Source: a virus
Length of the DNA: 64,000 nucleotides
Direction: 5' to 3' (one strand)
IMG/VR virus record: IMGVR_UViG_3300010375_000001
Location: 10,022-74,021 of that record
The notes under the pieces were generated by a model. It was given only the letters and a program-made list of their open reading frames with translations. It was not told the origin of the DNA and searched no databases. Positions 10,740 through 46,825 of this stretch are shown one piece after another. The position numbers and the translations under genes are program-made. Position 1 is the stretch's first letter. Every line of letters begins with the position of its first letter.

Positions 10740-11528
10740 ATGCAAAACAACGCGTTCATTGATTTCGTATCGGAGATCTTCCAACGCTTGACTTCGAAGA
10801 CGCCGAAATTTTTCGTTATATGGCAATGGATCAGCGCTACCGTCGCGGCGGTAACGGGGCTCCCCGGCTTCTTGCAGGATATCGGCGTTACGCTGCCCAA
10901 GGCCCTGGCCATTGGTGAAAATAAAATAGTCGCTATCGCCAGTCTCGTGGCTCTTGTCATGGCCAAACTTCCCGTACAACAAACGGTCGTAAATAAGGAT
11001 GCCACTGGCGCTCCATTAACAAAGACCGATCCGGCAAAAACTCCTTTTACGGCGAAAGACCAGATTAAAAAAATGATTGGCATGAAATACGTCTTTCTTC
11101 TGCTCTTGTGCGCCATCTCTTTCAATGTTTCGGCCCAGAGTCCATTCCGTCCTCTAACCAAACTGAATGCGCCGGGCAAGAAGTATTTACATGCTTTGAC
11201 GACTCCTGATTCAACATTAAACACTTGGCGATTTATCGCTGACATTGCCGCCTATGCGGAGCCGGGAAACATACTGATGGCCGGAGTAGGTTATGGCTAC
11301 CAGCATCTGAAATATAATTTTGCTGCCGCAAAATGGAATGCGCAGTGGTCCATCAACGCGGTAGGATTTGCGGGAGGAAGTGTTGCACCGACCACGCCGG
11401 CAAGTATAGTTTCATTCGGGGTTATGGCCGGTATCGATAATAATTTATTTATGGCCGGCCCAATATATAATCCGGGAACAAAACAATTTGGGATTGCCCT
11501 TTCGATCGGCATCTCTTTGAATAACTAA
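10740..11528 (+). CDS. Holin-like N-terminus fused in frame to a signal-peptide-bearing beta-rich domain (internal ATG 11082)
   Basis: Two TMs after TSKTPKFF, then MKYVFLLLLCAISFNVSAQ. Confidence 0.55.
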   Translation: MQNNAFIDFVSEIFQRLTSKTPKFFVIWQWISATVAAVTGLPGFLQDIGVTLPKALAIGENKIVAIASLVALVMAKLPVQQTVVNKDATGAPLTKTDPAKTPFTAKDQIKKMIGMKYVFLLLLCAISFNVSAQSPFRPLTKLNAPGKKYLHALTTPDSTLNTWRFIADIAAYAEPGNILMAGVGYGYQHLKYNFAAAKWNAQWSINAVGFAGGSVAPTTPASIVSFGVMAGIDNNLFMAGPIYNPGTKQFGIALSIGISLNN

Positions 11529-11580
11529 AAATCCCCGCCCGATTGCTCGAACGGGGAATCCCCATATAGATGTCTGTCTC
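11527..11580 (-). ncRNA. Putative small RNA antisense to endolysin leader
   Basis: Minus-strand ATTG-N20-TACATTTG (11616-11585) and an 11-bp terminator whose G-U pairs work only on the minus strand. Confidence 0.5.
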
Positions 11581-11598
11581 GCATCAAATGTACAAAAA

Positions 11599-12063: not shown

Positions 12064-12569
12064 ATATTTTATCCATCATCATAGGACTCGCAATCGCAAT
12101 ACTCATGGTACAGATAATCATTAATGTGCGCGAGCACTCGCACAGGCATACAAAAACATTCTTGATACTAAAATCTATCCGTTTTCATCACATCAAAATA
12201 GAGGGAATAATTATGTCAGCACAATTGAACGTGAACGAGCTCTTGGTTGGGACGCTCGGTCTCGTAGATCATGCCACACAACAACCGATTACAGCTACGT
12301 TCACCAATGTTTCTGTATCCAGCAGCGACACGAGTATCTTCACTGCATCACTGGATGGCTCCGGCAACGTCGATGTGGATGGCATATCCGCTGGTTCCGG
12401 CACCCTTTCCATTTCGGCGGATGCCACGTATGTCGATCCGGCTACTCAGGCCACGGTGACCTTCACGAAGGTTCTTACCGTCAGCGTAACCGTTTCGCCG
12501 GCTACTACCGCAACTGACCTCGTTGTCACGTTCGGAACGCCGCAACCGATCCCTGGTGGAGGGGTATAA
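12060..12569 (+). CDS. TM + Ig-like domain protein (possible internal start 12213)
   Basis: N-terminal TM; SSSDTSIFTA..G.SAGSGTLSI Ig-like pattern. Confidence 0.5.
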   Translation: MNILSIIIGLAIAILMVQIIINVREHSHRHTKTFLILKSIRFHHIKIEGIIMSAQLNVNELLVGTLGLVDHATQQPITATFTNVSVSSSDTSIFTASLDGSGNVDVDGISAGSGTLSISADATYVDPATQATVTFTKVLTVSVTVSPATTATDLVVTFGTPQPIPGGGV

Positions 12570-12570
12570 A

Positions 12571-12602
12571 TAATAAGGCCCCCTAATCCGGGGGCCTTAT
12601 TA
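12571..12602. terminator. Bidirectional terminator
   Basis: TAATAAGGCCCCC-loop-GGGGGCCTTATTA between convergent genes. Confidence 0.7.
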
Positions 12603-12933
12603 AATCTCGGATGTCGATGGTTGGTGGATATTCCTCCTGGTAAGCGCTTCGACTATACTCCCAGTTGCGTTTTCGTGCCATTTCGTTATTGCACTTGAAG
12701 CACCATAGCTCGACCGTATGTCGATTGTAGTGATCTTCAATGAAACGCCTGATATCGAAACGATCGTAAACATGTTGCACGGTTGGCATGTTTGCTGGAG
12801 GATGGCGTCGTTCGCCACTCATTTTATATCGTTGCATGAGCTGTATACCACAATTCGCGCAGGTATTGTGTTTTTGGACCAACTGTCCTAGATAGAGTCT
12901 ATTTCGCTTTCGGACTCCGTTTTTCGTAGCCAT
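12583..12933 (-). CDS. HNH-like zinc-binding nuclease
   Basis: CANC...PTVQH...WCFKCN pattern. Confidence 0.55.
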   Translation of the reverse strand: MATKNGVRKRNRLYLGQLVQKHNTCANCGIQLMQRYKMSGERRHPPANMPTVQHVYDRFDIRRFIEDHYNRHTVELWCFKCNNEMARKRNWEYSRSAYQEEYPPTIDIRDLIRPPD

Positions 12934-12943
12934 TCCACAATAT

Positions 12944-13011
12944 AAAAAAAACCCGCTGCTTTGCAGCAGCGGGTCGAACTAAAAACAAATGGGCGCTACG
13001 CTCAGATGGTT
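12944..13011 (-). ncRNA. Small RNA antisense to the shared early-gene leader CGAACTAAAAACAA
   Basis: Perfect upstream promoter, seed CAUUUGUUUUUAGUUCG, 9-10 bp terminator stem (12951-12974) and U8 tail. The 5' end is estimated. Confidence 0.7.
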
Positions 13012-13015
13012 TGTA

Positions 13016-13046
13016 CAAAAGTAAGGGTTTCAGGCAAATGTGCAAA
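13016..13046 (-). promoter_or_regulatory. Bacteroidota housekeeping-sigma promoter
   Basis: TTTG (13046-13043)-N19-TACTTTTG (13023-13016), exact consensus. Confidence 0.75.
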
Positions 13047-13054
13047 TTTTTGCC

Positions 13055-14314
13055 CTAAAATTTCTTTGCCCGTGCATTATTAATGGCCAAATTCAAGCCC
13101 AGATCCCGGAGATAGGTCTCGAACTCCGTCACCGACTTATGCCGGCACCAAGCCTGTATTTCGGCTGCTGTGGCACCAGCGCGGAACAGATCGATTACCC
13201 GCTTGTGCTTCCATCCGTAGATCGTATAGTCTTCGTGGATGCCGTTGGGCTTACGCACATGCTCGCGCCAGAACCAAGCAAACCGGCTTTCTGCGTGGCA
13301 TTCGGGGCCGGGTTTGTCTTCCTTACCGAAGATATAGTACTCGCCGGGCGCTTTATCTACCCCCATCTCTCTTAACATCATTTCCAGCTCAGGATCAAGC
13401 GGGATATAGCCCCCTTGACCGCCCTTGGCGCGGAGCGGATCGATGTAGATCTGGCCGTCGGCGAAACGAATATCTTTACATTTCAGCTGTCGCGTTTCTT
13501 CATCGGGCCGGGTCAGGGTATAATACACCGTCATGCAGAACCGGTAGGTGGCTAGTCCGATATCGGATACCTTGTGATGAAGTAGCAAGTGCTTTACTCG
13601 CTCCGCCATGGCATCGTCATAAGCCGTGTGGCGCGTCTTGTCCACGTGAGTAAGCTTCTTCACCTTTTCAGCCGGCGACTCCTTAATCCATTCTTCGTCC
13701 TTTACGAACTTAAAGAGGGTTCTGAGCTTGGTCACCTTATCGTTGTAGGTGCCCTTCTTCCAATCCTTCTCCTCGCGCTTGGTGCGCAACATATCATTCA
13801 GGTCATCCTTGGTGATGTCTTTGATAGAACCTTTGACCCGGTCTCCCAGCCATTCCCCTAGCAGGCGGGTAATCACTTCATAGGATAACCTGCTGGAACT
13901 GCCTTCCGGATGAATCATCAAGAATTTTTTCATAGCAGCTTCGATAGTCACCTTTGGCTTGGTGTCCTTCGTAATAGCCACCATGGGAACATGTTGGCCC
14001 GTCTGCTGGTTGTACTCGTCGATGATATCTTGGAATGGGTTTAACCCATTTTGCAAGAGTAACTTGACTGAATGCAAAAGCTCTTCGGCGCACTGCTCGT
14101 AGTCTTCTTCAGATACCGTATTGAGTTTACCCTTTACCCGGAAGCGGGCCCAGTCCAGCAGCTCGCCCTTTTTATTCAGCCATTCCTTTTTGATCAGGCC
14201 GGGCGGCAGCTTCTGGAAAAGGTCGGGTGGTATCCGGTGATGATACTCAACGTAGTGGCCATTCTTCGCCTCGACGAGGCGCACGCCATAATACCGGTTA
14301 GACTTCTTTGACAC
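13055..14314 (-). CDS. int: Tyrosine integrase
   Basis: Catalytic R (TRPDEE), K, YGWKHKR, CRH and YLR. Start placed at GTG 14314 because upstream sequence looks like attP. Confidence 0.85.
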   Translation of the reverse strand: MSKKSNRYYGVRLVEAKNGHYVEYHHRIPPDLFQKLPPGLIKKEWLNKKGELLDWARFRVKGKLNTVSEEDYEQCAEELLHSVKLLLQNGLNPFQDIIDEYNQQTGQHVPMVAITKDTKPKVTIEAAMKKFLMIHPEGSSSRLSYEVITRLLGEWLGDRVKGSIKDITKDDLNDMLRTKREEKDWKKGTYNDKVTKLRTLFKFVKDEEWIKESPAEKVKKLTHVDKTRHTAYDDAMAERVKHLLLHHKVSDIGLATYRFCMTVYYTLTRPDEETRQLKCKDIRFADGQIYIDPLRAKGGQGGYIPLDPELEMMLREMGVDKAPGEYYIFGKEDKPGPECHAESRFAWFWREHVRKPNGIHEDYTIYGWKHKRVIDLFRAGATAAEIQAWCRHKSVTEFETYLRDLGLNLAINNARAKKF

Positions 14315-14494
14315 TCGTTTGACACTTGGGTTAATTAAAAATACGGAATTTCTGGTAATCAGCGTGTTGCAGGGATTTCCGTTGATCGCCTGCATCAATG
14401 GAACACTTTCGGCCGGGGAGCCGTCATTGATTTTGAGGTGGTTGCGATGAGACATGTTTTGTATTTTTGTAGATTTTTGACACTCGTTTGACAC
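14307..14494. other. Putative attP with arm-type repeats
   Basis: Exact 19-bp direct repeat TTTGACACTCGTTTGACAC at 14307-14325 and 14476-14494; IHF-like AATCAGCGTGTTG at 14357-14369. Confidence 0.65.
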
Positions 14495-15694: not shown

Positions 15695-15717
15695 GGTTAG
15701 CTTATATAATCCTTTTG

Positions 15718-15788
15718 TTGTCTGTGGGGGACTCGAACTCCCATCTACTGACCTAATGCCAGCATACTACCAATTATACTAACAGACA
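15718..15788 (-). tRNA. tRNA-like gene with 5-nt anticodon loop (probably non-decoding)
   Basis: TGTCTGT/ACAGACA acceptor, D loop AATTGGTA, CTGGC-ATTAG-GTCAG, T loop TTCGAGT. Confidence 0.7.
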
Positions 15789-34279: not shown

Positions 34280-34343
34280 CACTCTTTACAAGCTCTACCG
34301 ACGAACCGCGTAGCTTGCACAAGGGGCGAGCCCTTGAAGAGTG
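34280..34343 (+). ncRNA. tRNA-mimic element 1
   Basis: CACTCTT/AAGAGTG + CAAGG-GGCGAGC-CCTTG. Confidence 0.6.
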
Positions 34344-34358
34344 CTAAAATTGACAACT

Positions 34359-34769
34359 ATGTTTACTCAACAAGAAAGGGACCTCATGCAGGCGGCTATA
34401 GCCTCACATCTACTTTACTTATACGATACTCGGGCTATGACTTTAGAACAAAAAGAAGCGGAACGTGATAAGGTGAGAGCGCTATCAGCAAAGATTGACG
34501 CAACCGCTAATAAGGGACCATATAAGCCGATTACGTTAGTCCTAGACCACATCGGATGCCTTCATATGTTTGCGGGCGATGTTCATCCAACTGGCCGGGA
34601 TCATCCGAAGGTTAATGGCCGCGAAGCGGTAACGTTTATCCAGCGGCAAGAGGACATTGAGGGTATAATGGAGTATCTAACAGATGACGAACAAGAGAAT
34701 TTAAGCGGTGGTAATCCGGTTCGTACAACGTACGTTCCGGATTACTATATCATTCCCGTTCAATCCTAA
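34359..34769 (+). CDS. Early hypothetical protein
   Basis: ATG after A-rich leader. Confidence 0.6.
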   Translation: MFTQQERDLMQAAIASHLLYLYDTRAMTLEQKEAERDKVRALSAKIDATANKGPYKPITLVLDHIGCLHMFAGDVHPTGRDHPKVNGREAVTFIQRQEDIEGIMEYLTDDEQENLSGGNPVRTTYVPDYYIIPVQS

Positions 34770-34818
34770 CCCCTCATTGCATAACGGCAATCTGCGTAGT
34801 TCGAGACTGCGCAGGGGT
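34769..34818 (+). ncRNA. tRNA-mimic element 2
   Basis: ACCCCT/AGGGGT + GCGTAG-TTCGAGA-CTGCGC; internal ATTGC/GCAAT hairpin. Confidence 0.65.
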
Positions 34819-34833
34819 GCTAAACTTACACAC

Positions 34834-35112
34834 ATGAAAAAGATAGACGGAACTTCCCCTAAGCGTAATAGGTTTACCAACCTTGAACAGGTCGCGCGGT
34901 TGCTTCTCAAAAGACTGATATCTTTCACCTATACACCTGCTTGTATTGTAGTCACTGATTCGGATAAGAGCGAAATGGCGTTTTACACAGCCACCTATGA
35001 TTTTGAAACCAAAGAAGTAGTATTAATGATGGGTGCAAGCTATATAGCGGAAAAGCATTACATAGAAATCAAGCATAGTGATGCGGTATTATACATTGAA
35101 CGCGCGAAGTAA
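34834..35112 (+). CDS. Early hypothetical protein
   Basis: ATG after A-rich leader. Confidence 0.55.
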   Translation: MKKIDGTSPKRNRFTNLEQVARLLLKRLISFTYTPACIVVTDSDKSEMAFYTATYDFETKEVVLMMGASYIAEKHYIEIKHSDAVLYIERAK

Positions 35113-35192
35113 GTCATTTCAGGGCTTCGATACTTAACACAGGGACCGCATGTCTATGCGGTCCTTTACTATTATAAACAACATTTAAATAT

Positions 35193-35315
35193 ATGGACGC
35201 ACTAAATGAGTTTATCCTAATCATCGCATCGGTTGCCGGGTTGGGCACGCTGATCTTTATGTATGGCTTCTTTAAGGACTGCGAAGAGTCTGACAACACT
35301 TCCCCGCGTGGTTAA
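35193..35315 (+). CDS. 40-aa single-TM microprotein (not in ORF track)
   Basis: MDALNEFILIIASVAGLGTLIFMYGFFKDCEESDNTSPRG. Confidence 0.55.
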   Translation: MDALNEFILIIASVAGLGTLIFMYGFFKDCEESDNTSPRG

Positions 35316-35350
35316 AGGCCACCGTTAGCGGTCAGCGCGCTAACGGGGAG
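35300..35350 (+). ncRNA. tRNA-mimic element 3
   Basis: TCCCCG/CGGGGA, D-like GTGG-TTAAAGG-CCAC, TTAGCG-GTCAGCG-CGCTAA. Confidence 0.55.
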
Positions 35351-35391
35351 CACTGCCTTACGGCAAGAATTCGAACTAAAAACAGATCATT

Positions 35392-35607
35392 ATGAAACAC
35401 TTCTTTCAAGTGGACAATGACCACGTAGATCGTGTTCGGGAGATTGCGATGAAAAGCGCGCTACACATTGGAATCAGTAAGGAATGGGATACAAAGACGG
35501 ATATGTATGTTACTAGTCTTCCCAATGAAGCCGATACGCTGATTAAGAGGCTTAAACGAAATGGCATTAGCGCGCGCATTTATAAGCGCATCGACTACGC
35601 GAACTAA
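35392..35607 (+). CDS. Early hypothetical protein
   Basis: Preceded by CGAACTAAAAACA. Confidence 0.6.
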   Translation: MKHFFQVDNDHVDRVREIAMKSALHIGISKEWDTKTDMYVTSLPNEADTLIKRLKRNGISARIYKRIDYAN

Positions 35608-35617
35608 AAACAACTAT

Positions 35618-35839
35618 ATGACAAAAGTTAAAACGAACGAGCAGCGCTTTCGCGCGCTGCTCAACGATTTGGGACCGTTTGGCGCGGCTATACTACGGGA
35701 GCGCATGATGAACATGGTACAGTATAATCGCGATGCCATTGAGAAAGACCCGGAGTCTTTCAACAATCCGCTCTTCAACCACACACACTATTCGGCATTG
35801 TGTGACAAGATTGAAAAGCACCTGGGTTTCGAAGAGTAA
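35618..35839 (+). CDS. Early hypothetical protein
   Basis: Preceded by CGAACTAAAAACAA. Confidence 0.6.
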   Translation: MTKVKTNEQRFRALLNDLGPFGAAILRERMMNMVQYNRDAIEKDPESFNNPLFNHTHYSALCDKIEKHLGFEE

Positions 35840-35846
35840 CCCGGCC

Positions 35847-35889
35847 ATCCCTTGGGTCAGGCCTATGCTGTTCGAATCAGCGAAGGGAG
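35847..35889 (+). ncRNA. tRNA-mimic element 4
   Basis: TCCCTT/AAGGGA + TGCTG-TTCGAAT-CAGCG. Confidence 0.7.
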
Positions 35890-35908
35890 CGAACTAAAAA
35901 CAAGATGT

Positions 35909-36001
35909 ATGTCCGATTTATTCATGTGGTTGCTGTTAGTCGGCTTCTATGCCGTGCTGATGCAGTTTCCCGGTTATAAACCTAAAAGACGTAAGGTATG
36001 A
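35909..36001 (+). CDS. 30-aa TM microprotein (not in ORF track)
   Basis: MSDLFMWLLLVGFYAVLMQFPGYKPKRRKV after the shared leader. Confidence 0.5.
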   Translation: MSDLFMWLLLVGFYAVLMQFPGYKPKRRKV

Positions 36002-36156
36002 GCTTGTATGTAGTGGAACTGGTAAACGGTGATATCGTTACCGTTTACGCGGATAGTGAGCAGGATGCAGCAGAGCAAGTGTAGGACACGGACCGCGTAG
36101 GCGGCGCAATGGACCGGTTAATGCCGGTCCTTTCTTTGTAACTAATATCTATTTAT

Positions 36157-36429
36157 ATGGAGAAGATTCTACTGATCGATGCGAACAGGGGTATTTATAT
36201 CCCGCAGGAGTTTGCCAAGGCTTACGGGGAGCAATTCACCGGAACTTCATTAGAAGAGGATATAGCGATACTTCTGGAAGGTCCCGACCATGCTGAATAC
36301 AATGAGGCAATGGACGAAATTCTCCTGAAGGGAGGGCTAATATTAGATGGGAAAAAGTACAGGATTGACCAGGACGGTGACTTATGGGCGGTCCCTGAAG
36401 GGTATGAAGAACCGGAAGAGGCCTCGTAA
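36157..36429 (+). CDS. Early acidic protein
   Basis: RGIYIPQEFA...QDGDLWA. Confidence 0.65.
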   Translation: MEKILLIDANRGIYIPQEFAKAYGEQFTGTSLEEDIAILLEGPDHAEYNEAMDEILLKGGLILDGKKYRIDQDGDLWAVPEGYEEPEEAS

Positions 36430-36495
36430 CCACCATCCCCGATCCCGTTTTGGACATTCAACGCATTTTAGAATATTAACGGAAAATCAATCAAC

Positions 36496-36684
36496 ATGAA
36501 AGTAATAACTATTACGGGGAACGTTCCCGGCAAGGTGATTTTTAACTTAGAAGGTTTAACACAATTGCAAATAGCGTCCCTCTATAATGCATTAGAGGAT
36601 GCTATTGCAAAAGAGCTATTCCATAATCCGACAAGGGGCGAATTGCTGAAACAGTTGCATGAAGCTATCGCCCCTTACTTATAG
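36496..36684 (+). CDS. Early hypothetical protein
   Basis: A-rich leader; stop abuts the hammerhead. Confidence 0.55.
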   Translation: MKVITITGNVPGKVIFNLEGLTQLQIASLYNALEDAIAKELFHNPTRGELLKQLHEAIAPYL

Positions 36685-36733
36685 GTTAACTGACGAGTCT
36701 TGAATAGACGAAAGGGGGCAACCCCTCTTAACC
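36684..36733 (+). ncRNA. Type I hammerhead ribozyme
   Basis: GGTTAA-CTGACGA-GTCT(TGAAT)AGAC-GAAA-GGGG(GCAA)CCCC-TC^TTAACC; complete core; predicted cut after C36727. Confidence 0.9.
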
Positions 36734-36771
36734 AAAAGACAGCCGCAGTCTATAACAGGCGGGCCAATGTT

Positions 36772-37431
36772 ATGAACAAGAAAAATTACCGGACCGTACG
36801 GACCAAGGTGTATCAATTTGATGCGCTGAGCGATAAGGCGAAGAAAAAAGCCATAGAGCAATGCCGCTACTTCAATGTTGATGGCGAGTGGTGGGAGTTT
36901 ATCTACGATGATTTCAAGCGGATTTGCGAAACCGTTGGCGTCGACGTTGATTTAAAGAAAACCCACTTCCGTTTCTCAAGTCAGGGGGACGGGGCTGCGT
37001 TTACAGCGGATGTTGATTTGTTCAAGCTGATCGACGGCATTAACGGGGAGGCATGGCGGCAAGAGGCGCCCAACTTGGACAAGGAAAATAACTTTACTCC
37101 TCCTCATTGCAGCGTAGATCGGCGGGTATTGGATTTGATCAAACGGGACTGGATTAGTTTCACGGTGAACCTTGAAGCGAAGGACCGGCCTTATCATACA
37201 AAGGCAGATATCGAGTACGATTACACTCAGGATTCGTGCGGGTCCTATGAGAACATTGAGAACCAGCTGGACTTATTATACCTATGGGTCAAAGACGTTG
37301 TCATCGAATTGAACCATTTGCTATATCGCATCCTAAAACGTGAATACGAATGGCGGACGAGCGATGAAGCGGTCATTGAAACGATCAAGGCCAACGAATA
37401 TGAGTTTCTGGCTGATGGCAAACGCTTTTAA
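36772..37431 (+). CDS. Conserved early phage protein
   Basis: VYQFDALSDKAK...SQGDGA...EYEWRTSDEAV; the track's start at 36700 lies inside the ribozyme. Confidence 0.65.
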   Translation: MNKKNYRTVRTKVYQFDALSDKAKKKAIEQCRYFNVDGEWWEFIYDDFKRICETVGVDVDLKKTHFRFSSQGDGAAFTADVDLFKLIDGINGEAWRQEAPNLDKENNFTPPHCSVDRRVLDLIKRDWISFTVNLEAKDRPYHTKADIEYDYTQDSCGSYENIENQLDLLYLWVKDVVIELNHLLYRILKREYEWRTSDEAVIETIKANEYEFLADGKRF

Positions 37432-37473
37432 CCCTACATGGTGCAACGCCCCGGATCGTCGCCGGGGTAGGTT
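37431..37473 (+). ncRNA. tRNA-mimic element 5
   Basis: ACCCTAC/GTAGGTT (6/7) + CCCGG-ATCGTCG-CCGGG. Confidence 0.7.
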
Positions 37474-37491
37474 CGAACTAAAAACAAGTGT

Positions 37492-37821
37492 ATGGAAACT
37501 CTACCGATGATCCCGAAGGATCAACTTATTTGCAAGAGTCATGCGGCATCGATGCTCATGATCTTTACGGAACGGCATTTCAAGGACCTCGTTTTGCACA
37601 TTTATGAACGGGCTAAGAAGAACCAGGAACGATGGCTTTATTACAACCTTGTGAATATCCTTCTTTACAGGGTGACGAACGAATGGGTCGATCAAATGGA
37701 GGCCGTTGAAATGGATGCTACCCTTATCCGCGAAATGTCCGTCAGCGATCAGGAGGAGTACGTAAGAGTGTATGAAAACAGGTATTCGCATTGGTTGCGA
37801 TATGGTGTCTTAATGCCATAA
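37492..37821 (+). CDS. Early hypothetical protein
   Basis: Shared leader. Confidence 0.6.
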   Translation: METLPMIPKDQLICKSHAASMLMIFTERHFKDLVLHIYERAKKNQERWLYYNLVNILLYRVTNEWVDQMEAVEMDATLIREMSVSDQEEYVRVYENRYSHWLRYGVLMP

Positions 37822-37863
37822 CCACGCTTGGAGCTTGCAAGGGATCGTTTCCCTTGCGTGGTT
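37820..37863 (+). ncRNA. tRNA-mimic element 6
   Basis: AACCACGC/GCGTGGTT + AAGGG-ATCGTTT-CCCTT; linker TTGGAGC. Confidence 0.75.
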
Positions 37864-37881
37864 CGAACTAAAAACAAGTGT

Positions 37882-38004
37882 ATGAAAAAGCAAAATGCTA
37901 CAGGTGTAAGCCTGTTTATCTTCACGGCGGTTGTTATGATCGGGTTTGCCCTGACTATTTATTCCATCAACGCTGCGTTGTGGGTGTATTCCCCGGGCCG
38001 GTAG
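37882..38004 (+). CDS. 40-aa TM microprotein (not in ORF track)
   Basis: MKKQNATGVSLFIFTAVVMIGFALTIYSINAALWVYSPGR after the shared leader. Confidence 0.6.
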   Translation: MKKQNATGVSLFIFTAVVMIGFALTIYSINAALWVYSPGR

Positions 38005-38088
38005 AGCGACTTCTACGATCGTTTAGTTTTATCCATGCGACCTCAATCGGTCGCTTTAAAGGACCGGGTTTCTACCCGGTCCACATTT

Positions 38089-38134
38089 TCCCTACGGATC
38101 ATAACGATGCCGTGCTATTCGATTAGGATAGGGA
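38089..38134 (+). ncRNA. tRNA-mimic element 7 (imperfect)
   Basis: TCCCTA/TAGGGA + CTA-TTCGAT-TAG. Confidence 0.5.
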
Positions 38135-38154
38135 CCGAACTAAAAACACATAAT

Positions 38155-38802
38155 ATGACACCCGAACAGTTCGAAAAGTACATTAGCATTAAGCTACAGG
38201 AAAGTAAGCTAACTCAAAAGCGACTCGAAGAAAATTGCGCATTATTTGTTGATGTGACAAAGATTGCCCTTGAGATAATGCTACACGCTGGCATATCAAA
38301 ACTTCACGCGCTAACGGCAATGTATGGTCCCTTTATGGATTCTAAGTGTGAAGGCGAGGTGAATTTTTGGTGGACAGGATACATCCAAATGTATGACAGC
38401 TGTAAAATCCGCTATTCTATTGAGCTTGCCCGGCAATGGGTTAACGGCAACCAATGGTGCGAGGTGGGCATGAAGTACCCGACCTTTGATAAGGCGAAGT
38501 TCGTAAAGCGCTTTAAGCTCCAATATGTCGGACTGTATCCGGCTGATGGCGTTGAGTATGAGGTTTGGGAGAATCCGGGCCGGACCATGATGTGGTCATG
38601 TAGTCCAGGGAGCTTCGGTAAGGGAGGATACGCGGGCCTTGTCTTCGATACGTTTGATAGCGCGTATCAGTTCGTACAGTGGTTTATGTCTTCGCCTACT
38701 CACTATGTGAAAGACATCGATGTCTTTCACAATGGACTGGGCGGCCTCGGTGTTGAGCAGTACAAAACCATCCGCGAACGAGGTTCAGTAAGTGCAAGCT
38801 AA
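38155..38802 (+). CDS. Early hypothetical protein
   Basis: Shared leader. Confidence 0.6.
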   Translation: MTPEQFEKYISIKLQESKLTQKRLEENCALFVDVTKIALEIMLHAGISKLHALTAMYGPFMDSKCEGEVNFWWTGYIQMYDSCKIRYSIELARQWVNGNQWCEVGMKYPTFDKAKFVKRFKLQYVGLYPADGVEYEVWENPGRTMMWSCSPGSFGKGGYAGLVFDTFDSAYQFVQWFMSSPTHYVKDIDVFHNGLGGLGVEQYKTIRERGSVSAS

Positions 38803-38809
38803 CCACCCA

Positions 38810-38863
38810 CAGCGGGACCGTGGTCCTTCGGGATCGGCGAGGCATTCGAAGTGCCGCCCGCTG
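38810..38863 (+). ncRNA. tRNA-mimic element 8
   Basis: CAGCGGG/CCCGCTG + GGCA-TTCGAAG-TGCC; internal UUCG hairpin. Confidence 0.65.
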
Positions 38864-38884
38864 CTAATCAAAAACAAGTACATT

Positions 38885-39211
38885 ATGGTGGATGCGTCAA
38901 ACTTTTATATTAGGACTGATTGCACGTGGTCTTATCTATACTATGGCAATAGAGCCTATGATCTTTTTTCAGAACTGAAAAACACTTCTGGTATCGAGAT
39001 TGTCCGTCCTTATGCAAGTTCAAGCTATTATGCGGTAGATGCTGCCAAAAATGAAGTATACCGGCTTTCGAACCATTGGGGGCGCGTTGCGTCCTGTTTT
39101 TGGTTTTTAGACAAAGACCTACCGATTTGGCAGCTACGCCAGCGATTGTATGTAATTGCGAAAGCAAATTTTTCTGATTTTATTCAAAAACCACACCCGG
39201 TTGATTATTAA
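38885..39211 (+). CDS. Early protein (RLSNHWGRVASCFW motif)
   Basis: Motif recurrent in Bacteroidota proteins (recall). Confidence 0.6.
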   Translation: MVDASNFYIRTDCTWSYLYYGNRAYDLFSELKNTSGIEIVRPYASSSYYAVDAAKNEVYRLSNHWGRVASCFWFLDKDLPIWQLRQRLYVIAKANFSDFIQKPHPVDY

Positions 39212-39236
39212 CTAAAATTTTCAAAACTCTAAAACT

Positions 39237-39539
39237 ATGGCACACACTAAAGGACGTTGGTCATCGTATGAAGATGCTGTTACCGCTAAAGTAAAGGCAA
39301 GGGGGCGTATCGATGTTTCTCAAGTTGATATCTGCCATATGTACGACGACGATGGCATACCGCGCAGCGAGCAGCGGGATAACAAGAAGCTGATCAAAGC
39401 TGCGCCGGATATGTATAGGGCTTTGCAAGAGATCATTGATGTAATTGAATCAGGTGACCGTAAGGTAATGCGAATCATTCTGCTGAAAGCGTTGATGTAT
39501 GCCAAGGCCGGGCTGCGCAAAGCTCCGAAGCGAAAGTAA
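39237..39539 (+). CDS. Early protein (HTKGRW...LIKAAPDM)
   Basis: Common phage HTPGPW/LIAAAPEL-type family. Confidence 0.65.
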   Translation: MAHTKGRWSSYEDAVTAKVKARGRIDVSQVDICHMYDDDGIPRSEQRDNKKLIKAAPDMYRALQEIIDVIESGDRKVMRIILLKALMYAKAGLRKAPKRK

Positions 39540-39543
39540 CTAA

Positions 39544-39589
39544 TAGCGGGCCGCACTACAGGTGCAGACATTCGCCATGTCACCCGCTG
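39544..39589 (+). ncRNA. tRNA-mimic element 9
   Basis: TAGCGGG/CCCGCTG + GACA-TTCGCCA-TGTC; D-like GCAC/GTGC. Confidence 0.65.
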
Positions 39590-39608
39590 CGAACTAAAAA
39601 CTAGTAAG

Positions 39609-39875
39609 ATGAAATCAACGCTTAGATTGAAAGTGTCTATCAAGGTAGGCACGGCAAAGGCGATGGAAAAATGGTATCGCGATTTATTCCATGCCTGTGA
39701 CAAAAAGAGGATTGATGTCGTCCGGGAGCTGGTAACGATGGAGGAGAACCAGCGGCGGGCCGGTGATTGGAATTGGGGGGCCGAATGTTTCGATGCCGAG
39801 TTCATTACGGAGAAAGACGATCTATTGCATCGGGCATTCCTGTTAGTGGAGGCCGCGAAGATGGGCAAGCAATAG
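39609..39875 (+). CDS. Early hypothetical protein
   Basis: Shared leader. Confidence 0.6.
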   Translation: MKSTLRLKVSIKVGTAKAMEKWYRDLFHACDKKRIDVVRELVTMEENQRRAGDWNWGAECFDAEFITEKDDLLHRAFLLVEAAKMGKQ

Positions 39876-39900
39876 CCCATTTTTAATCCCTACCCCCGTA

Positions 39901-39945
39901 CAGCGCGCTGACTTCGGTGTCTACCCTTCGATGCGGGGCGCGCTG
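39901..39945 (+). ncRNA. tRNA-mimic element 10
   Basis: CAGCGCGC/GCGCGCTG + CCC-TTCGATGC-GGG. Confidence 0.55.
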
Positions 39946-39961
39946 GCTAAAACACAACTAT

Positions 39962-40318
39962 ATGAGTTACGATCTTAAACTGAAAGACCCGCTAACAGGC
40001 GAAACCATCCTGTTAGCGGAGGACCATCACATAACAGGTGGTACATACGCACTTGGTGGAACAAAAGAAGCGTGGATTAATATTACTTATAACTACGGTG
40101 GTATTTTTCGTCAGGTGCTTGGAGAAAATGGTATCCGAACGATTTACGGCATGACCGGTGCGGAAGCGCTGCCGCTCTTGGAAAAGGCCATCTATCAGCT
40201 AAAGAGTGATATGACGGACAACTACTGGGATGCGACTGAAGGTAATGCCAAGAAAGCGCTGCTAAATGTAGCTGCTTTATCCGCTCTTGCTCCCCAAGGG
40301 ATATGGAGCGGAGACTAA
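39962..40318 (+). CDS. Conserved phage protein (NITYNY motif)
   Basis: GGTYALGGT.EAWINITYNY...YWDATEGNAK. Confidence 0.7.
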   Translation: MSYDLKLKDPLTGETILLAEDHHITGGTYALGGTKEAWINITYNYGGIFRQVLGENGIRTIYGMTGAEALPLLEKAIYQLKSDMTDNYWDATEGNAKKALLNVAALSALAPQGIWSGD

Positions 40319-40356
40319 CCGCCTGACGGCGAAATTTTATAACTAAACTTACCCCA

Positions 40357-40572
40357 ATGAACAAGAAAGATGGAAGGCCTTTCTATGAGGCCTGTTATGA
40401 TGGTATGATGTCAACGGTAATCGAAATAACGGCGGATGATGTAAAATATGAATATCATACGGTGGACAACTATGAGTTTTTTTGGAGCCGAGCCAAAGCG
40501 GTGAGAGCATTGCGGGCAAGACTGCGCCGGGAGATTCGTGATCTTAAGTATTGCTTAAAGCATCTTCATTAA
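40357..40572 (+). CDS. Early hypothetical protein
   Basis: A-rich leader. Confidence 0.5.
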   Translation: MNKKDGRPFYEACYDGMMSTVIEITADDVKYEYHTVDNYEFFWSRAKAVRALRARLRREIRDLKYCLKHLH

Positions 40573-40594
40573 TTAGTAAACTAAAAACAAGTAT

Positions 40595-40786
40595 ATGAAA
40601 ACATTCGATTGTACAGTAATTTACGCGAGGCCTTCGCATTGGGGAGGCATTGAATCAAAACGCTGGCAATGTCGCATTCATGCAATTGACGAGTCAGCAG
40701 CCGAATCAATTGCTCCATTGTTAGTTGCAGATAAGACCTACCTATATACAATAATGGTAGAGGTTGAAGTAACAGTTATTCTCTAA
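40595..40786 (+). CDS. Early hypothetical protein
   Basis: AACTAAAAACAAG leader. Confidence 0.55.
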   Translation: MKTFDCTVIYARPSHWGGIESKRWQCRIHAIDESAAESIAPLLVADKTYLYTIMVEVEVTVIL

Positions 40787-40835
40787 AACGCCACAGTGGA
40801 CCGCCACGCATGCAGCTCGTGCGCTGCATGGCGTT
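40787..40835 (+). ncRNA. tRNA-mimic element 11
   Basis: AACGCCA/TGGCGTT + TGCAG-CTCGTGCG-CTGCA; D-like GTGG/CCAC. Confidence 0.65.
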
Positions 40836-40854
40836 CGAACCAAATCAGTATATT

Positions 40855-41238
40855 ATGGGTTACGAAACAAGGCTGTACATTGGCCTATTGCATGAGAAGA
40901 TGCTCGCGACTGATCCGGGTCGGTACGTTAGAAAGTTAGCGATGATCGAAATCGATGCTCCTATTTTCACTGGTACTTTCATTGAAGAAAAGGACAAGGA
41001 AGTGCCGGTCTATTTGATTGCCGATGGCGATGCAAACCCGGATGAAATGCTTGCCGATGATAAGTATGGAAGTCAGCTCTATGCGATCAATCCGCAGAAA
41101 ATTCAGGCGAAGCTATTAATCTTTCAAGGACTGAAAGAATATCCGATGGCCTTTGCAGCTGCGCAATTCCTGCGTTCTCTTATCATGGACTACGCGAAGA
41201 CGAGATGGGAACTTGTTTGCGTCTTGTATGGACACTGA
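40855..41238 (+). CDS. Early hypothetical protein
   Basis: ATG after element 11. Confidence 0.6.
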   Translation: MGYETRLYIGLLHEKMLATDPGRYVRKLAMIEIDAPIFTGTFIEEKDKEVPVYLIADGDANPDEMLADDKYGSQLYAINPQKIQAKLLIFQGLKEYPMAFAAAQFLRSLIMDYAKTRWELVCVLYGH

Positions 41239-41239
41239 A

Positions 41240-41287
41240 AACGCCAAGCGGATGGGCCGCGCGCCGGGATCGTGTCCCGGTGGCGTT
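41240..41287 (+). ncRNA. tRNA-mimic element 12
   Basis: AACGCCA/TGGCGTT + CCGGG-ATCGTGT-CCCGG; D-like GCGG/CCGC. Confidence 0.75.
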
Positions 41288-41305
41288 CTAACTAAAAACA
41301 AGTAT

Positions 41306-41557
41306 ATGACTGATCTAAAGTTCGTCGTCCGCTTGGGAGTGATTAACCCCGAAACGGAGGAACTGCAATCCATCGATATTTACATGGATGCGGGTGGTGT
41401 AATGGTTGGATTCGACTCTATACCTATCGCCAATGGGGATAGGCTATATTCCCCCTATGATAAAAAGGAGGTAACGCTGGAAGGCCAGGAGGCCATTAAG
41501 CAGCCGCGCCGCGAGTCGAATGCAAAGAAATATTCATCACTGCTGAAGAAATTATAG
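41306..41557 (+). CDS. Early hypothetical protein
   Basis: AACTAAAAACAAG leader. Confidence 0.6.
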   Translation: MTDLKFVVRLGVINPETEELQSIDIYMDAGGVMVGFDSIPIANGDRLYSPYDKKEVTLEGQEAIKQPRRESNAKKYSSLLKKL

Positions 41558-41598
41558 TAATAACATCAAACGTTTCCGGACCGTAACCGGACCACAAG

Positions 41599-42015
41599 AT
41601 GAAACACACAATAACGTTGCATCGCGTCACAACGGAAGTAATAGAAGTTGAGATTGAGGCAAAAACAATCAAGGCGGCTATACAAAAGGCAGAGAAAACA
41701 GCATTTGCCGAAAACGCTTTTGAAACCAACAAACCGGAAGTCAATAGCATCGACTATTATGTCTGGACAGAGCAGAGGAATCGAATGCCGGAAATACTCA
41801 TTACCGTTGATGGTGGCATCATCGATGAAATTATATCTACCACGCGCAATATCAAAGTCTCAGTTATTGACGACGATGACGAAGGTCGCTCGCCGGGAGA
41901 AAGCAAAATCCCCTATTTCCAAGCGCAACCGGATAGTATCGTTACGTTCGACCATATTAAAGCGATGTTGGAAGAGGCGGAAGACGAGCAACTGAATGAG
42001 CAAGATGAAGAATAG
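41599..42015 (+). CDS. Early acidic protein
   Basis: ORF after a T-arm-only hairpin. Confidence 0.6.
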   Translation: MKHTITLHRVTTEVIEVEIEAKTIKAAIQKAEKTAFAENAFETNKPEVNSIDYYVWTEQRNRMPEILITVDGGIIDEIISTTRNIKVSVIDDDDEGRSPGESKIPYFQAQPDSIVTFDHIKAMLEEAEDEQLNEQDEE

Positions 42016-42022
42016 AAGCTTT

Positions 42023-42066
42023 AACCCTGCTTGGAGCTACGGCCCGGATCGATGCCGGGCGGGGTT
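42023..42066 (+). ncRNA. tRNA-mimic element 13
   Basis: AACCCTG/CGGGGTT + CCCGG-ATCGATG-CCGGG; linker CTTGGAGC. Confidence 0.7.
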
Positions 42067-42084
42067 CTAAAAATGTAGATCATT

Positions 42085-42483
42085 ATGAATACAGTAAAAC
42101 GAACAGAAAAAGGCTGGGCGGGTCATTTCATATGTTCAAGATGGTGTTTATTTCGCCGCCATACACTCCTGGAATATGGTGATATAGCGATTACCGTTAG
42201 CACGGTGGGTAACCATCTTTCATATGATGAGAAAATGCAGGACCTTGGAATTGGACGTTATTTCGAAACGATGGTTTTTCACTCTGAGCCCGTTACGGTG
42301 GACAACCATTGGAAAGATGCGGATGTGAGCAAGCAGATTGCCATTCGTTCCAGGAGCACTATCGGTGAGCCGTGGAAGGAACAGGAGGCCAATGATATGC
42401 ATGAACGAATTGTTCAGGAGTTTGTCGATGACTTGCTGGCCGGGAATCGGTTTGAAATACCTGCCGATGACTACGATGAATAA
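42085..42483 (+). CDS. Conserved phage protein (GWAGHFIC..CLFRRHTL)
   Basis: Motif-rich ORF. Confidence 0.65.
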   Translation: MNTVKRTEKGWAGHFICSRWCLFRRHTLLEYGDIAITVSTVGNHLSYDEKMQDLGIGRYFETMVFHSEPVTVDNHWKDADVSKQIAIRSRSTIGEPWKEQEANDMHERIVQEFVDDLLAGNRFEIPADDYDE

Positions 42484-42736
42484 TAAAAATAAACTGTTTG
42501 ATATGGACCATCGGTGGACCAAAGGAAAATACGCGGCCTACCTCAACAAGGAGTATAGCAAGTGTACTTTGGAGCAAATTCATAGAAAGTTCAGCTATCT
42601 CTATGATTCGGTGGCTGGGGAAAATGCGCTTACGAGGGCGTGGGTGGGAGGCAGGGTGGGCAGTTATGTCGCTGATCATGATCCGGAGGCCTTTAACAAT
42701 TGGTACGAAAAATGGGTTGCACAAAAAAAACGTTAG
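42476..42736 (+). CDS. Early hypothetical protein
   Basis: Overlapping ATG. Confidence 0.5.
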   Translation: MNNKNKLFDMDHRWTKGKYAAYLNKEYSKCTLEQIHRKFSYLYDSVAGENALTRAWVGGRVGSYVADHDPEAFNNWYEKWVAQKKR

Positions 42737-42757
42737 CGGATCGTAACCGCGTGAAAT

Positions 42758-43003
42758 ATGAGAAGTATTAAAGTAGTAGTTACAGTGCTAAAGCTAAACG
42801 CTCAAGTAGCCATCGCCCACCAGTATGATATGGAAGGGTCTCAAGAAGTATCATCGAAACGGAAAATTCGGCGAGCTATTTCGCGATATATAGGCAATTA
42901 TGGAGAGTCCTGTGTGGATGACCGCCAAACAGAGAGTAGCAATGAGGCATGGGCTTTTGCAGAAAAGGCCTATGCTAAATATTTTAATAGTTTTAAACGA
43001 TAA
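42758..43003 (+). CDS. Early hypothetical protein
   Basis: After a T-arm-only hairpin. Confidence 0.5.
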   Translation: MRSIKVVVTVLKLNAQVAIAHQYDMEGSQEVSSKRKIRRAISRYIGNYGESCVDDRQTESSNEAWAFAEKAYAKYFNSFKR

Positions 43004-43006
43004 CAC

Positions 43007-43717
43007 ATGAAACAAAAACTAATCATCGCCATCGCTTTTTTGTTAGGCCTTGGCGTATTACCCGGTTATCTTATTGCGAAGCGCATCGTCTCTATGCGCG
43101 GCAAGAGTGAAGCCGCAGCAAAGCATACTGTCACCGACAACCCGCAGTATAACGAGCAGCTGAAGATATGGGGCGCGTATTGGGGGCCCCGTTCGATTGT
43201 TATGTTGGGTGACTCGCATATGTACAAATGTCACTGGGATGAGTTATTAAGCCGGGACAGCATCGCCAACCAGGGCATTGGCAGCGATATAACGGAAGGA
43301 TATCTGGCCCGTATTGGGTACGTTTTCGATGTGAAGCCCCGGATTTGTTTTATCGAGGGCGGGGGCAATGATATCGAGTATAAGATTGCGCCTGCGGAGA
43401 TCGTGGCCAATATCCAGCGGATCGTGGATACGTTGAAGCCGAAGGGCATTATCTGCGTGCTAACGACCGTTCCGTATGAGCTGAGCACGTTAGCCGGAGC
43501 GCAGCAATACAACGGGGCTATCGACGAGCTGAATGCACGTGTCAGGATGTATGCCTACAAAAACGGGCTGGACTACATCGATCTGAACGGGCTAACGGCA
43601 CGCGACGGAGCGCTCAACCCGGATGAGGCGCAGAATGACGGCGCACATCTCACCGCAGCCGCGTACGTGAATTGGAAGCTGGCAATGGAAAAGATTTTGA
43701 AAAAGTATAAATTGTAA
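43007..43717 (+). CDS. Membrane-anchored SGNH/GDSL esterase
   Basis: LGDSH, NQGIG, GGNDI, DGAH; N-terminal TM. Confidence 0.88.
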   Translation: MKQKLIIAIAFLLGLGVLPGYLIAKRIVSMRGKSEAAAKHTVTDNPQYNEQLKIWGAYWGPRSIVMLGDSHMYKCHWDELLSRDSIANQGIGSDITEGYLARIGYVFDVKPRICFIEGGGNDIEYKIAPAEIVANIQRIVDTLKPKGIICVLTTVPYELSTLAGAQQYNGAIDELNARVRMYAYKNGLDYIDLNGLTARDGALNPDEAQNDGAHLTAAAYVNWKLAMEKILKKYKL

Positions 43718-43719
43718 CA

Positions 43720-43974
43720 ATGGCTATGGTAATTACCCCATATCAGGGGATAAACGATGACTTTCTGGAACACCGGTTTGCGCGATGCATCAATTTATTT
43801 TTCGAAGGCAAACGCGAAGAATCTTTCGATGTCTTTCAACAGATGGATAAAAAAACACACGCTACATTTTTCGTATGCCTGGGCATAGCCATGCAAATGA
43901 ATAGTGAGAAGATGACCGGCATGTCGGCGGGAGAGGCGAATGAACTTTTTAAATATTATTTGGATAAAATTTAA
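43720..43974 (+). CDS. Hypothetical protein
   Basis: ORF in operon. Confidence 0.5.
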   Translation: MAMVITPYQGINDDFLEHRFARCINLFFEGKREESFDVFQQMDKKTHATFFVCLGIAMQMNSEKMTGMSAGEANELFKYYLDKI

Positions 43975-43980
43975 ACGTAA

Positions 43981-44023
43981 ACCGCGTGGTCTGGCCTATC
44001 CGGGATCGTAACCTGGACGCGGG
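43981..44023 (+). ncRNA. tRNA-mimic element 14
   Basis: CCGCGT/ACGCGG + CCGGG-ATCGTAA-CCTGG. Confidence 0.7.
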
Positions 44024-44051
44024 CAATCATTCTATAACCAATTTACCCATT

Positions 44052-45692
44052 ATGGCTACTCGAATTTTACCAACGCCAGACGAATTGGAGCAGGCGTTGC
44101 TTGCCCATATTTTGTCGCCTCCCGTTATCCGGATTGCCGTTATAGCTGCCACGCTTATGATAACCAATCAGGAGTTCCATAAGATATGGATGAGTCGTCA
44201 CACAACGAAGCCACACGATTGGTATATGGAAAAAAGGATGGAGGCAGCAGCTAAGCTGCTATTGGAAGGCAATACCATTGACGAAACAGCCCGCATCCTC
44301 GGTTATGCGAGTGTGGGCGGATTGCTTGTGCCATTCCGTACGCGATTCGGCAAATCGCCTACGGAATATATTGCTGAACATAGAGAGGCAGAGTCTTTAA
44401 TTAAGCATCGGGCCAAGGTAGTGGAAATGTCGAAGGTTGTGGCTATTAATGCGCGGCGCATCCGATGCGAAAAAAACTGGACGCAAGCTAAAGTAGCCAA
44501 AGCATTGGGCGTAGTCGCTAGCAAGTATACGCTACGAGAAAGTGGGGAAATGCTTTTTAGTCGCGAGCAGATCGAACGGCTTGCTAAAGCCTTGGAGGTA
44601 ACATCGGCCGACTTGCTGGAAGGTTTCGAAATTAACCAAAACAATAACCTTCAAATTGATTCTATGGCTGAAATGTCACTAGGCGTTGCGATAGGTAAGA
44701 ACCTACGGCGCATTCGCAAAGAGAAACAACTTACACTTAAAGACCTGGAAGACCTCACCGATATTGAGGCGTACAAACTGGATTATATGGAGGGAGGGGG
44801 GCATAAATTTAATAGGGTAATGATCGAGAAGCTGGCGATGGCTCTTGGTGTACCTCCCTCTGATTTGACGGAAGGGGCCGATCCTTCTCGCGATATCGCC
44901 CAGTTATACGAGACGTATAAAGGGCTATCTGTGGCTGACATTCGCCTTGTCGAAGATAGTGACCAGGAGGCCGACTTTGACCCAGAGCAGTTAGCAAAAG
45001 ATACCAGGAAAATGCTCGCGAGCGAAGAGAAAAGGAGTGTCCGACAAGTTATTCGGCCGGTGCCGAAGGAAACGGAGGAGCCCGACCTGGGCGCGGAAGA
45101 AGAAACGCCAGCACAGGCCAAAGAAGAGCCGGTAGCGCCTCCAGCGGAAACAGCCAGCCAGCCAACCGACCCCGGATCGGCGGCACAACTGTTAATCGAG
45201 TATACCAAGCAAACGCCACACCTTCAGGATATGGTAGAAAAGCTGTACAAGGCACGGCTGACAGATAAGATAACAGACCTGGCGTTATATGTGCAGCGCA
45301 AGCTGCTGCCTACGGTGATAGTAGCGTATGTATCCGATGAGGATAACAAAGTCAAGGCCGTTGAACGGGTTCGAACGATGAGCGAGGCGGAGAAGTTTAC
45401 CTATCTCCAATTTTGCGCACAAGGGTATGACACCTGGAAGGCGGCGTTGTTTCCGGAAGAGGAGCTGTCCCTGGGTGTGCTGATCGCGGCCAACACGGAG
45501 GCGGCGCTGGTGGCGGCGTTCGAGCTGGATAAACGCCGCGCCCTGGCCGACCTGCTACTGCCACTTATCAGATCCTCCTCCAGCCCTAGGGGAGTAGATA
45601 TGGGGCTGCTATCCATGGCGGTAGGAGAGTGGATAGAGGACCTGACCAAGGTACAGCAGGCGATTACGGAATATCTGGAAACAACCAAGTAA
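44052..45692 (+). CDS. AraC-HTH + two XRE-HTH fusion regulator
   Basis: RMEAAAKLL...FGKSPTEY; WTQAKVAKALG; LTLKDLEDLT. Confidence 0.75.
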   Translation: MATRILPTPDELEQALLAHILSPPVIRIAVIAATLMITNQEFHKIWMSRHTTKPHDWYMEKRMEAAAKLLLEGNTIDETARILGYASVGGLLVPFRTRFGKSPTEYIAEHREAESLIKHRAKVVEMSKVVAINARRIRCEKNWTQAKVAKALGVVASKYTLRESGEMLFSREQIERLAKALEVTSADLLEGFEINQNNNLQIDSMAEMSLGVAIGKNLRRIRKEKQLTLKDLEDLTDIEAYKLDYMEGGGHKFNRVMIEKLAMALGVPPSDLTEGADPSRDIAQLYETYKGLSVADIRLVEDSDQEADFDPEQLAKDTRKMLASEEKRSVRQVIRPVPKETEEPDLGAEEETPAQAKEEPVAPPAETASQPTDPGSAAQLLIEYTKQTPHLQDMVEKLYKARLTDKITDLALYVQRKLLPTVIVAYVSDEDNKVKAVERVRTMSEAEKFTYLQFCAQGYDTWKAALFPEEELSLGVLIAANTEAALVAAFELDKRRALADLLLPLIRSSSSPRGVDMGLLSMAVGEWIEDLTKVQQAITEYLETTK

Positions 45693-45703
45693 ACGAATGA
45701 CTC

Positions 45704-46147: not shown

Positions 46148-46173
46148 ACCAAGTAATTTTTAAAAACCAGCAA

Positions 46174-46812: not shown

Positions 46813-46825
46813 CCGCGTATAGCTT

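Follow-up and report, generated by a model that had tools for sequence, protein, structure and literature searches.

The integrase-linked locus of a Bacteroidota phage

The window analyzed here, 64,000 nucleotides in length, comprises bases 10022–74021 of one 74,021-bp virus record. As this record has a 123-bp terminal overlap, it represents the entire genome of a phage, as opposed to a chromosomal prophage. The phage was recovered from rhizosphere metagenomes, and the sequencing runs examined contain it as identical fragments only, with no variation among them. Its genes include those for a portal protein, structural proteins, an M15 endolysin, a tyrosine integrase and a primase-polymerase, together with a long plus-strand block of small ORFan genes. 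The portal protein matches Bacteroidota phages exclusively (Cellulophaga, Flavobacterium, Tenacibaculum, Maribacter) and a 77-kb contig that was binned with a Puia sp. (Chitinophagaceae) MAG carries a related capsid gene; these relationships, and the integrase, whose presence points to a temperate life style, suggest a phage of soil Bacteroidota of the temperate type.

The integrase gene (int; 13055–14494, minus strand, 479 aa) matches Pfam Phage_integrase and PHROG 1, and homologues of the integrase occupy the same slot in two related phages, G001 and G002. Immediately downstream of int and on the same strand lies a short unit composed of a predicted promoter, a sequence complementary to a tag that recurs in the early region (herein referred to as the seed) and an intrinsic terminator. 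The initial annotation of this DNA had described the unit as a stand-alone small RNA gene of ~68 nt in a prophage. It does not strictly stand alone: it starts 9 nt past the int stop codon, and a 116-aa ORF on the same strand, ORF116, has its ATG 10 nt beyond the end of the unit's U-tract; likewise, the chromosomal prophage gives way to a complete phage contig, but the position of the promoter directly beside int is borne out.

The predicted promoter (13016–13046, minus strand) is of the Bacteroidota sigma-A type, with a −33 box TTTG (13046–13043), a 19-nt spacer and a −7 box TACTTTTG (13023–13016), exactly as had been claimed. Sequences of the form TTTG-N18-21-TAnnTTTG occur three times in the 74-kb genome, counting both strands and including this one (the reversed control gives 0); TAnnTTTG by itself is not enriched (37 copies, approximately the expected number). 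Five TAnnTTTG boxes are intergenic, of which one belongs to the unit's promoter and another, at 34042, heads the early block. The portal and capsid relatives are all Bacteroidota phages and one related contig lies in the Puia MAG, so the promoter type fits the host; the unit possesses, at the sequence level, the predicted host-type promoter that characterizes trans-encoded base-pairing small RNAs.

Overlapping both the −7 box and the predicted start site is the palindrome TTGTACAA (13011–13018), which has five copies in the genome against ~1.1 expected; four of these lie in regulatory gaps (13011, 14501, 33274 and 33871) and the fifth, at 24329, within a coding sequence. The integrase promoter region shows the same TTGTACAA layout (TATCATTGTACAAAAC versus TACTTTTGTACAAACC, with TTG ~20 nt upstream), and the matching position of the palindrome in the two promoters supports the view that the unit's promoter is real and regulated. 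We consider TTGTACAA to be probably an operator for a phage regulator.

At its other end the unit carries an intrinsic terminator (12944–12975, minus strand), consisting of a hairpin (12975–12950) of nine perfect G+C-rich pairs, or 11 with the closing pairs (seven of the 11 being G-C), a 4-nt loop and a directly following run of eight T (U8 in the RNA, 12951–12944), in agreement with the GC stem and U8 tail first noted. A strict scan for such terminators (at least eight perfect pairs, at least seven T in eight) returns four in the whole genome, the int-linked one among them. The 11-pair hairpin and U8 tract are of the kind that ends discrete short small RNAs, and the order of promoter, seed and terminator thus defines a predicted discrete transcript of 63–69 nt (12944–13012, minus strand; start at ~13012/13009, end at 12944), which agrees with the size of ~68 nt originally proposed. 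Its predicted fold (MFE −25.6 kcal/mol, z = −3.9) comprises a weak 5′ hairpin, a largely single-stranded seed and the terminator. The seed, CAUUUGUUUUUAGUUCG (12975–12991, minus strand), is the exact complement of the plus-strand tag CGAACTAAAAACAAATG; its description as unpaired holds for the U-rich core, which is mostly unpaired in the ensemble, but not for the two ends, both of which are partly occupied by the weak 5′ hairpin. Any int mRNA ending at the 12975–12944 terminator would carry the seed in its 3′ UTR.

ORF116 (12583–12933, minus strand) encodes a Cys-rich ORFan of 116 aa with a CxxC ... CxxC pattern, a faint HNH-like PHROG match (E = 0.006) and no homologues among 5.8 billion clustered proteins or in phage records; it is its length and Cys-rich pattern that recommend it as a real gene. 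Since its ATG follows the U-tract by 10 nt, with no room for another promoter, ORF116, as judged from the sequence, can be transcribed only by read-through of the terminator. The order of promoter, terminator and start codon of a same-strand gene that typifies leaders and attenuators is therefore present with ORF116, but neither an alternative anti-terminator fold nor a ligand-binding domain is found in the unit, the fold of which is limited to the terminator and the weak hairpin at the 5′ end. At 12500–13400, Rfam families of riboswitches or leaders have no above-threshold match; searching this interval at E values up to 10 yields only sub-threshold matches on the terminator stretch, with no match to C4 (RF01695), and in the whole 64-kb window a tRNA is the only Rfam match at the gathering threshold.

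Other identities considered for the unit were rejected. A tRNA or tRNA fragment (attP core) finds no support, as ARAGORN and Rfam detect no tRNA at 12940–13060, and a 10-nt likeness (GCTCAGATGG) to the D-arm of a tRNA-Met of the related phage G002 lies on the opposite strand and is without model support. The coding frames of the unit are an 11-codon plus-strand frame and an implausible 48-codon minus-strand frame that starts in the −33 box.

Two further observations concern small features elsewhere in the genome. A second small minus-strand unit (11527–11592) lies within the late plus-strand genes, just upstream of the endolysin start at 11599, with a TACATTTG box (11592–11585), a terminator (11557–11532) and a tail, UUUUUAGUUA, that is also complementary to AACUAAAAA. 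A tRNA gene at 15717–15788 (minus strand; Rfam tRNA, 45 bits) is assigned by ARAGORN the anticodon UUA, which reads the UAA stop codon, yet 57 of the 104 ORFs end in TAA, which is thus the commonest stop of the genome, and under code 11 the long genes remain intact. Loop position 33 would be A, and the call is therefore uncertain.

Tags in the early leaders and their complementarity to the seed

The sequence AACTAAAAAC occurs 11 times in the 74,021-bp genome, on the plus strand in every case. Enrichment of the 12-mer over a shuffled background had been named beforehand as a test of the proposal, and the 12-mer passed it, with 12 matches at up to one mismatch against 0.40 expected and no shuffle reaching 12. 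Ten tags are distal to the int-linked unit and lie within a co-directional block at 35.4–48.2 kb, where an ATG stands 4–7 nt behind each of them and begins an ORF of 30–215 aa; the seed had been said to match eight or more early initiation regions, and every start position then listed is correct. Eight of the plus-strand tags begin with the exact 12-mer CGAACTAAAAAC: 35372–35385 (ATG 35392, 71 aa), 35600–35613 (ATG 35618, 73 aa), 35890–35903 (ATG 35909, 30 aa, hydrophobic), 37474–37487 (ATG 37492, 109 aa), 37864–37877 (ATG 37882, 40 aa, hydrophobic), 38136–38149 (ATG 38155, 215 aa), 39590–39603 (ATG 39609, 88 aa) and 48187–48200 (ATG 48208, 44 aa, hydrophobic). The two others contain the partial match AACTAAAAACAAG, starting at 40579 in the tag TAAACTAAAAACAA (40577–40590; ATG 40595, 63 aa) and at 41290 in the tag CTAACTAAAAACAA (41288–41301; ATG 41306, 83 aa). 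None of the ten encoded proteins has a Pfam match, and the seven that were searched in PHROGs have no match there.

Across the ten sites, conservation forms a sharp block, CGAACTAAAAACAA, in which 14 positions are shared by eight to ten of the ten sites and beyond which the flanks reach at most six of ten; seed complementarity spans exactly this conserved block. Duplexes between the free seed and the ten tags, computed with RNAduplex, have 13–20 pairs and energies of −13.7 to −23.4 kcal/mol, the background over the genome being −6.4 ± 2.7 kcal/mol. These duplexes are, however, A/U-rich and of moderate energy, and GC-rich chance sites attain similar values. The free seed alone was used for this comparison; a run that included its G+C-rich flanks was uninformative, being dominated by GC-rich chance sites. 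The paired stretch extends from approximately −21 to −5 relative to the AUG. At least 18 contiguous pairs can form at 37474 and 18 at 37864, in both cases with one G-U, as the initial annotation had claimed for these two targets. An accessible seed of the kind that defines trans-encoded small RNAs is hence present, with ten targets, 13–20 pairs at each and an enrichment of 12 matches over 0.4.

Seven or eight of the ten tags are preceded by a stable fold, either a stem-loop or a Y shape in which a closing stem bears two hairpins and the second of these often has a UUCGA-like loop; the fold ends 1–3 nt before CGAAC. These upstream folds are mutually unrelated in sequence and receive no score from the Rfam tRNA model; we suggest that they may be tRNA-like processing signals. 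The same kind of fold is also seen on the plus strand before several untagged early genes (34300–48200). At one gene junction in the early block (36684–36733, plus strand) there is a weak match to Hammerhead_1 (21.8 bits against a gathering score of 34; E = 0.27).

The copy of the tag at 12975–12991, when read on the plus strand, has a different setting. It lies between the minus-strand genes int and ORF116 with only an 11-codon frame behind it, and the hairpin beside it is a plain terminator preceded by A8, unlike the folds before the other tags.

Leaders and integrase-downstream slots of related phages

Two relatives were compared as whole genomes: G001, of 79 kb, and G002, of 77 kb, whose capsids are 84% and 77% identical, respectively. 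Both possess folds of this type, and their leaders are likewise A-rich, but the motifs are looser or differ (ACTAAAAYA and CAUUAAAYCA in G001; GCTAAAAYTAT and CTCAACAAATTGYAATTAT in G002), and it is these other leaders that are borne by their orthologues of the tagged genes at 35618 and 37492. The sequence CTAAAA after an upstream fold is common to the whole phage group, and this part of the tag is therefore constrained for another reason, probably one connected with translation or processing. What is special to this phage, as far as these genomes indicate, is the tenfold repetition of the exact 14-mer; because the orthologues in G001 and G002 carry other leaders, the tag appears to have been made uniform in this lineage only. 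Nor is it a general start region of the host, as the 4.4-Mb Puia MAG contains seven copies of the tag against four copies of the control. Uniform tags beside fully divergent neighbours would argue for a sequence-specific factor acting in trans rather than for gene conversion or a duplication of recent date.

No homology was seen when the slots behind int in G000, G001 and G002 were aligned, and the unit is not conserved by sequence in either G001 or G002, both of which carry int in the same slot. The G001 slot consists of ~70 nt and a terminator; it lacks a consensus promoter, and its complementarities are only 7–8 nt long. The RNA predicted downstream of its int folds as a hairpin, a single strand and a terminator, and 7-mers in this slot are complementary to 11 of its own 31 early leaders against 2.9 expected, a weak positive (P ~0.01). 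In G002 the slot (locus L141) holds a tRNA gene (41897–41970, minus strand) with a CAU anticodon as read by eye (Met-type).

Searches of IMG/VR for close relatives by the exact tag returned only single chance matches of the 14-mer and one chance match of the 19-mer. By integrase, no close relative was found in viral contigs, one metagenome scan recovered G001 again along with distant integrases only, and the integrase was not found in four further relatives. Phages recruited through the phrog_5162 protein proved to be unrelated, and a repeated AAAGACAA motif in the relative G006, considered as a second case, is an iteron-like cluster. Separately, G002 (IMGVR_UViG_3300003323_001224) carries at 43472–45740, directly beside its integrase gene (locus L141), a CRISPR-like array of 27 repeats of ~36 nt (GTTGTGACTTCCTTTCAAAATTAAGCTTCCTACAAC) with mostly a 66-nt period; its spacers have no 16-mer match to five related genomes.

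A candidate antisense regulator, its alternatives and known systems

We hypothesize that the int-linked unit encodes a trans-antisense regulator of ten early genes, a reading to which we give an even chance of being correct on the strength of its promoter, seed, terminator and targets. From the sequence features, the complementarity and its enrichment, and the predicted fold, we infer transcription, pairing in vivo, repression (including its repressive direction) and timing as follows. A minus-strand RNA of ~65 nt would be made from the 13046–13016 promoter and end at the 12975–12944 hairpin and U8 tract, and the integrase mRNA would carry the same sequence as its 3′ UTR. The single-stranded middle of this RNA would pair in trans with the 14-nt tag CGAACUAAAAACAA at approximately −21 to −5 of the ten start codons. 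Bacteroidota ribosomes rely on an unstructured A-rich leader and not on Shine-Dalgarno pairing, and for this reason a duplex of 13–20 bp on the leader should block 30S loading; mRNA decay may also rise, and the output of all ten early cistrons would fall together. Because the two promoters share the palindromic operator-like site, the RNA would probably be produced alongside Int, when lysogeny is established or maintained, and would constitute an RNA layer that keeps the early lytic genes down. A constitutive consensus promoter would count against this reading, since without regulation it would silence the phage's own early genes in lytic growth as well.

Foremost among the alternatives, and in our judgment unlikely, is that the unit has no function in trans: the hairpin and U8 would be no more than the terminator of int, ORF116 would be expressed from the promoter by leaky termination in the manner of a leader or attenuator, and the tag copy would be a relic of a plus-strand module of hairpin, leader and ATG that stayed behind when recombination introduced the int cassette. 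The position of ORF116 directly behind the U-tract, with no room for a promoter of its own, fits this explanation, and the G001 terminator, which lies at a similar distance after int (68 versus 80 nt) without a consensus promoter, is likewise consistent with a plain integrase terminator. The region from the lysis genes to int does vary among the relatives, which indicates recombination there, yet a relic should decay and 17 of 17 bases of the copy are intact, while the sole difference from the best targets (A for G) is one that retains a G-U pair. Read on the plus strand, the copy resembles the other tags in its order of hairpin, tag and ATG; its hairpin, however, is a plain terminator with an A8 run and not the usual fold that precedes a tag. 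The best promoter match and one of the four strict terminators in the genome would also have to lie antisense around the relic by coincidence, and from our own counts of promoters, boxes and terminators we put the joint chance that, even in intergenic DNA, a consensus promoter stands no more than ~55 nt upstream and a strict terminator no more than ~30 nt downstream at ~1e-4. Finally, the sharp 14-nt conservation of the ten tags is left unexplained.

Pairing could also act in the reverse direction, in that abundant early mRNAs, with as many as ten tags on an operon transcript, would pair with the int 3′ UTR or the ORF116 leader and lead to cleavage, loss of the protective terminator hairpin and a drop in Int during the lytic programme, a scheme reminiscent of the retroregulation of lambda int by sib. 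The seed lies within the int 3′ UTR regardless of the promoter, duplexes of at least 18 bp are possible, and the int 3′ UTR of G001 is complementary to early leaders although its slot lacks a promoter; still, we consider this explanation very improbable, as it gives no account of why a consensus promoter should follow the int stop codon, the pairing yields no long duplex of the RNase III type, and a single tag would do where an exact one is kept in ten leaders. There is similarly only a slight chance that the tag is a protein site (for a repressor or nuclease of the T4 RegA/RegB type or a processing factor) or a leaderless-type promoter element, with the int-side copy a further plus-strand site that, for example, starts or binds an RNA antisense to int: a sharply bounded exact block at a fixed distance from the ATG, the single orientation of 11 of 11 copies and the presence of CTAAAA after a fold in relatives without the antisense unit would all suit such a site, but protein-family searches of the phage genes found no candidate RNA-binding protein or phage RNA polymerase, the int-side copy has neither the usual preceding fold nor a gene behind it, and the minus-strand promoter and terminator become coincidence.

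Returning to the trans-antisense regulator, we also put forward, tentatively and with less than even confidence, a more inclusive proposal, in which the small RNA would form an RNA-only "lysogeny lock": co-regulated with int through the shared operator, it would silence ten cistrons of the early operon by way of identical 14-nt tags at the cistron 5′ ends, the operon may be cut into single messages at the tRNA-like folds, and the design would recur with different tags in other Bacteroidota phages. Gene control in the phages of Bacteroidota has scarcely been studied, and translation in their hosts begins without Shine-Dalgarno pairing; a regulator of this kind would, if true, offer a simple model of how leader sequences control translation in Bacteroidota.

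Several known systems share individual elements of this arrangement. The c4 RNA of P1 and P7 (immI; Rfam C4, RF01695) and the CI RNA of satellite P4 pair in trans with short repeated sites of the phage's own early or anti-immunity transcript and hold lytic functions down in the lysogen. The unit resembles them as a small phage RNA with (here predicted) trans pairing to repeated sites in the early transcripts of its own phage. It differs in that c4 and CI are cut from a longer transcript, address two sites of one mRNA and act partly through transcription termination, whereas the unit has its own predicted promoter, ten separate cistron starts as targets, a Bacteroidota host and a linkage to int, and matches no Rfam family in sequence or structure. 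Short antisense RNAs that aid lysogeny by lowering a lytic or anti-repressor function are also known in lambda (paQ and OOP) and P22 (sar), and paQ is co-activated with the int promoter; all three are cis-antisense and lie opposite a single target, whereas the RNA gene of the unit is 22–35 kb from its ten targets.

Outside phage immunity, GcvB directs a U/G-rich seed against C/A-rich leaders, but is chromosomal and Hfq-dependent, with degenerate targets. In common with GcvB, the unit would use one single-stranded U-rich seed against A/C-rich elements upstream of many start codons; its targets, unlike those of GcvB, repeat one tag exactly within a single phage operon. In T4, the repressor RegA and the endonuclease RegB bring about a global shut-down of early genes through a shared element of the initiation regions; these are proteins, whereas the only visible sequence-specific partner of the tag in the present phage is an RNA.

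A 2025 review of phage small RNAs, in which c4 RNA is discussed and P22 sar cited, contains no example from a phage of Bacteroidota, nor any that is integrase-linked or multi-leader (PMC12197685). It does describe STnc6030 of the Salmonella prophage BTP1, an antisense RNA on a phage mRNA that gives superinfection exclusion (PMC12197685); STnc6030 acts on only one target, a late one located in the tailspike region, whereas the unit is predicted to address a set of early start regions. If our reading is true, the unit would be the first such regulator described for phages of Bacteroidota, none being included in that review (PMC12197685). It is akin in kind to the c4 RNA of P1 and P7 without being a member of that family, and would represent a compact RNA-based module of immunity or lysogeny that is easy to test and reusable as a multi-gene switch.
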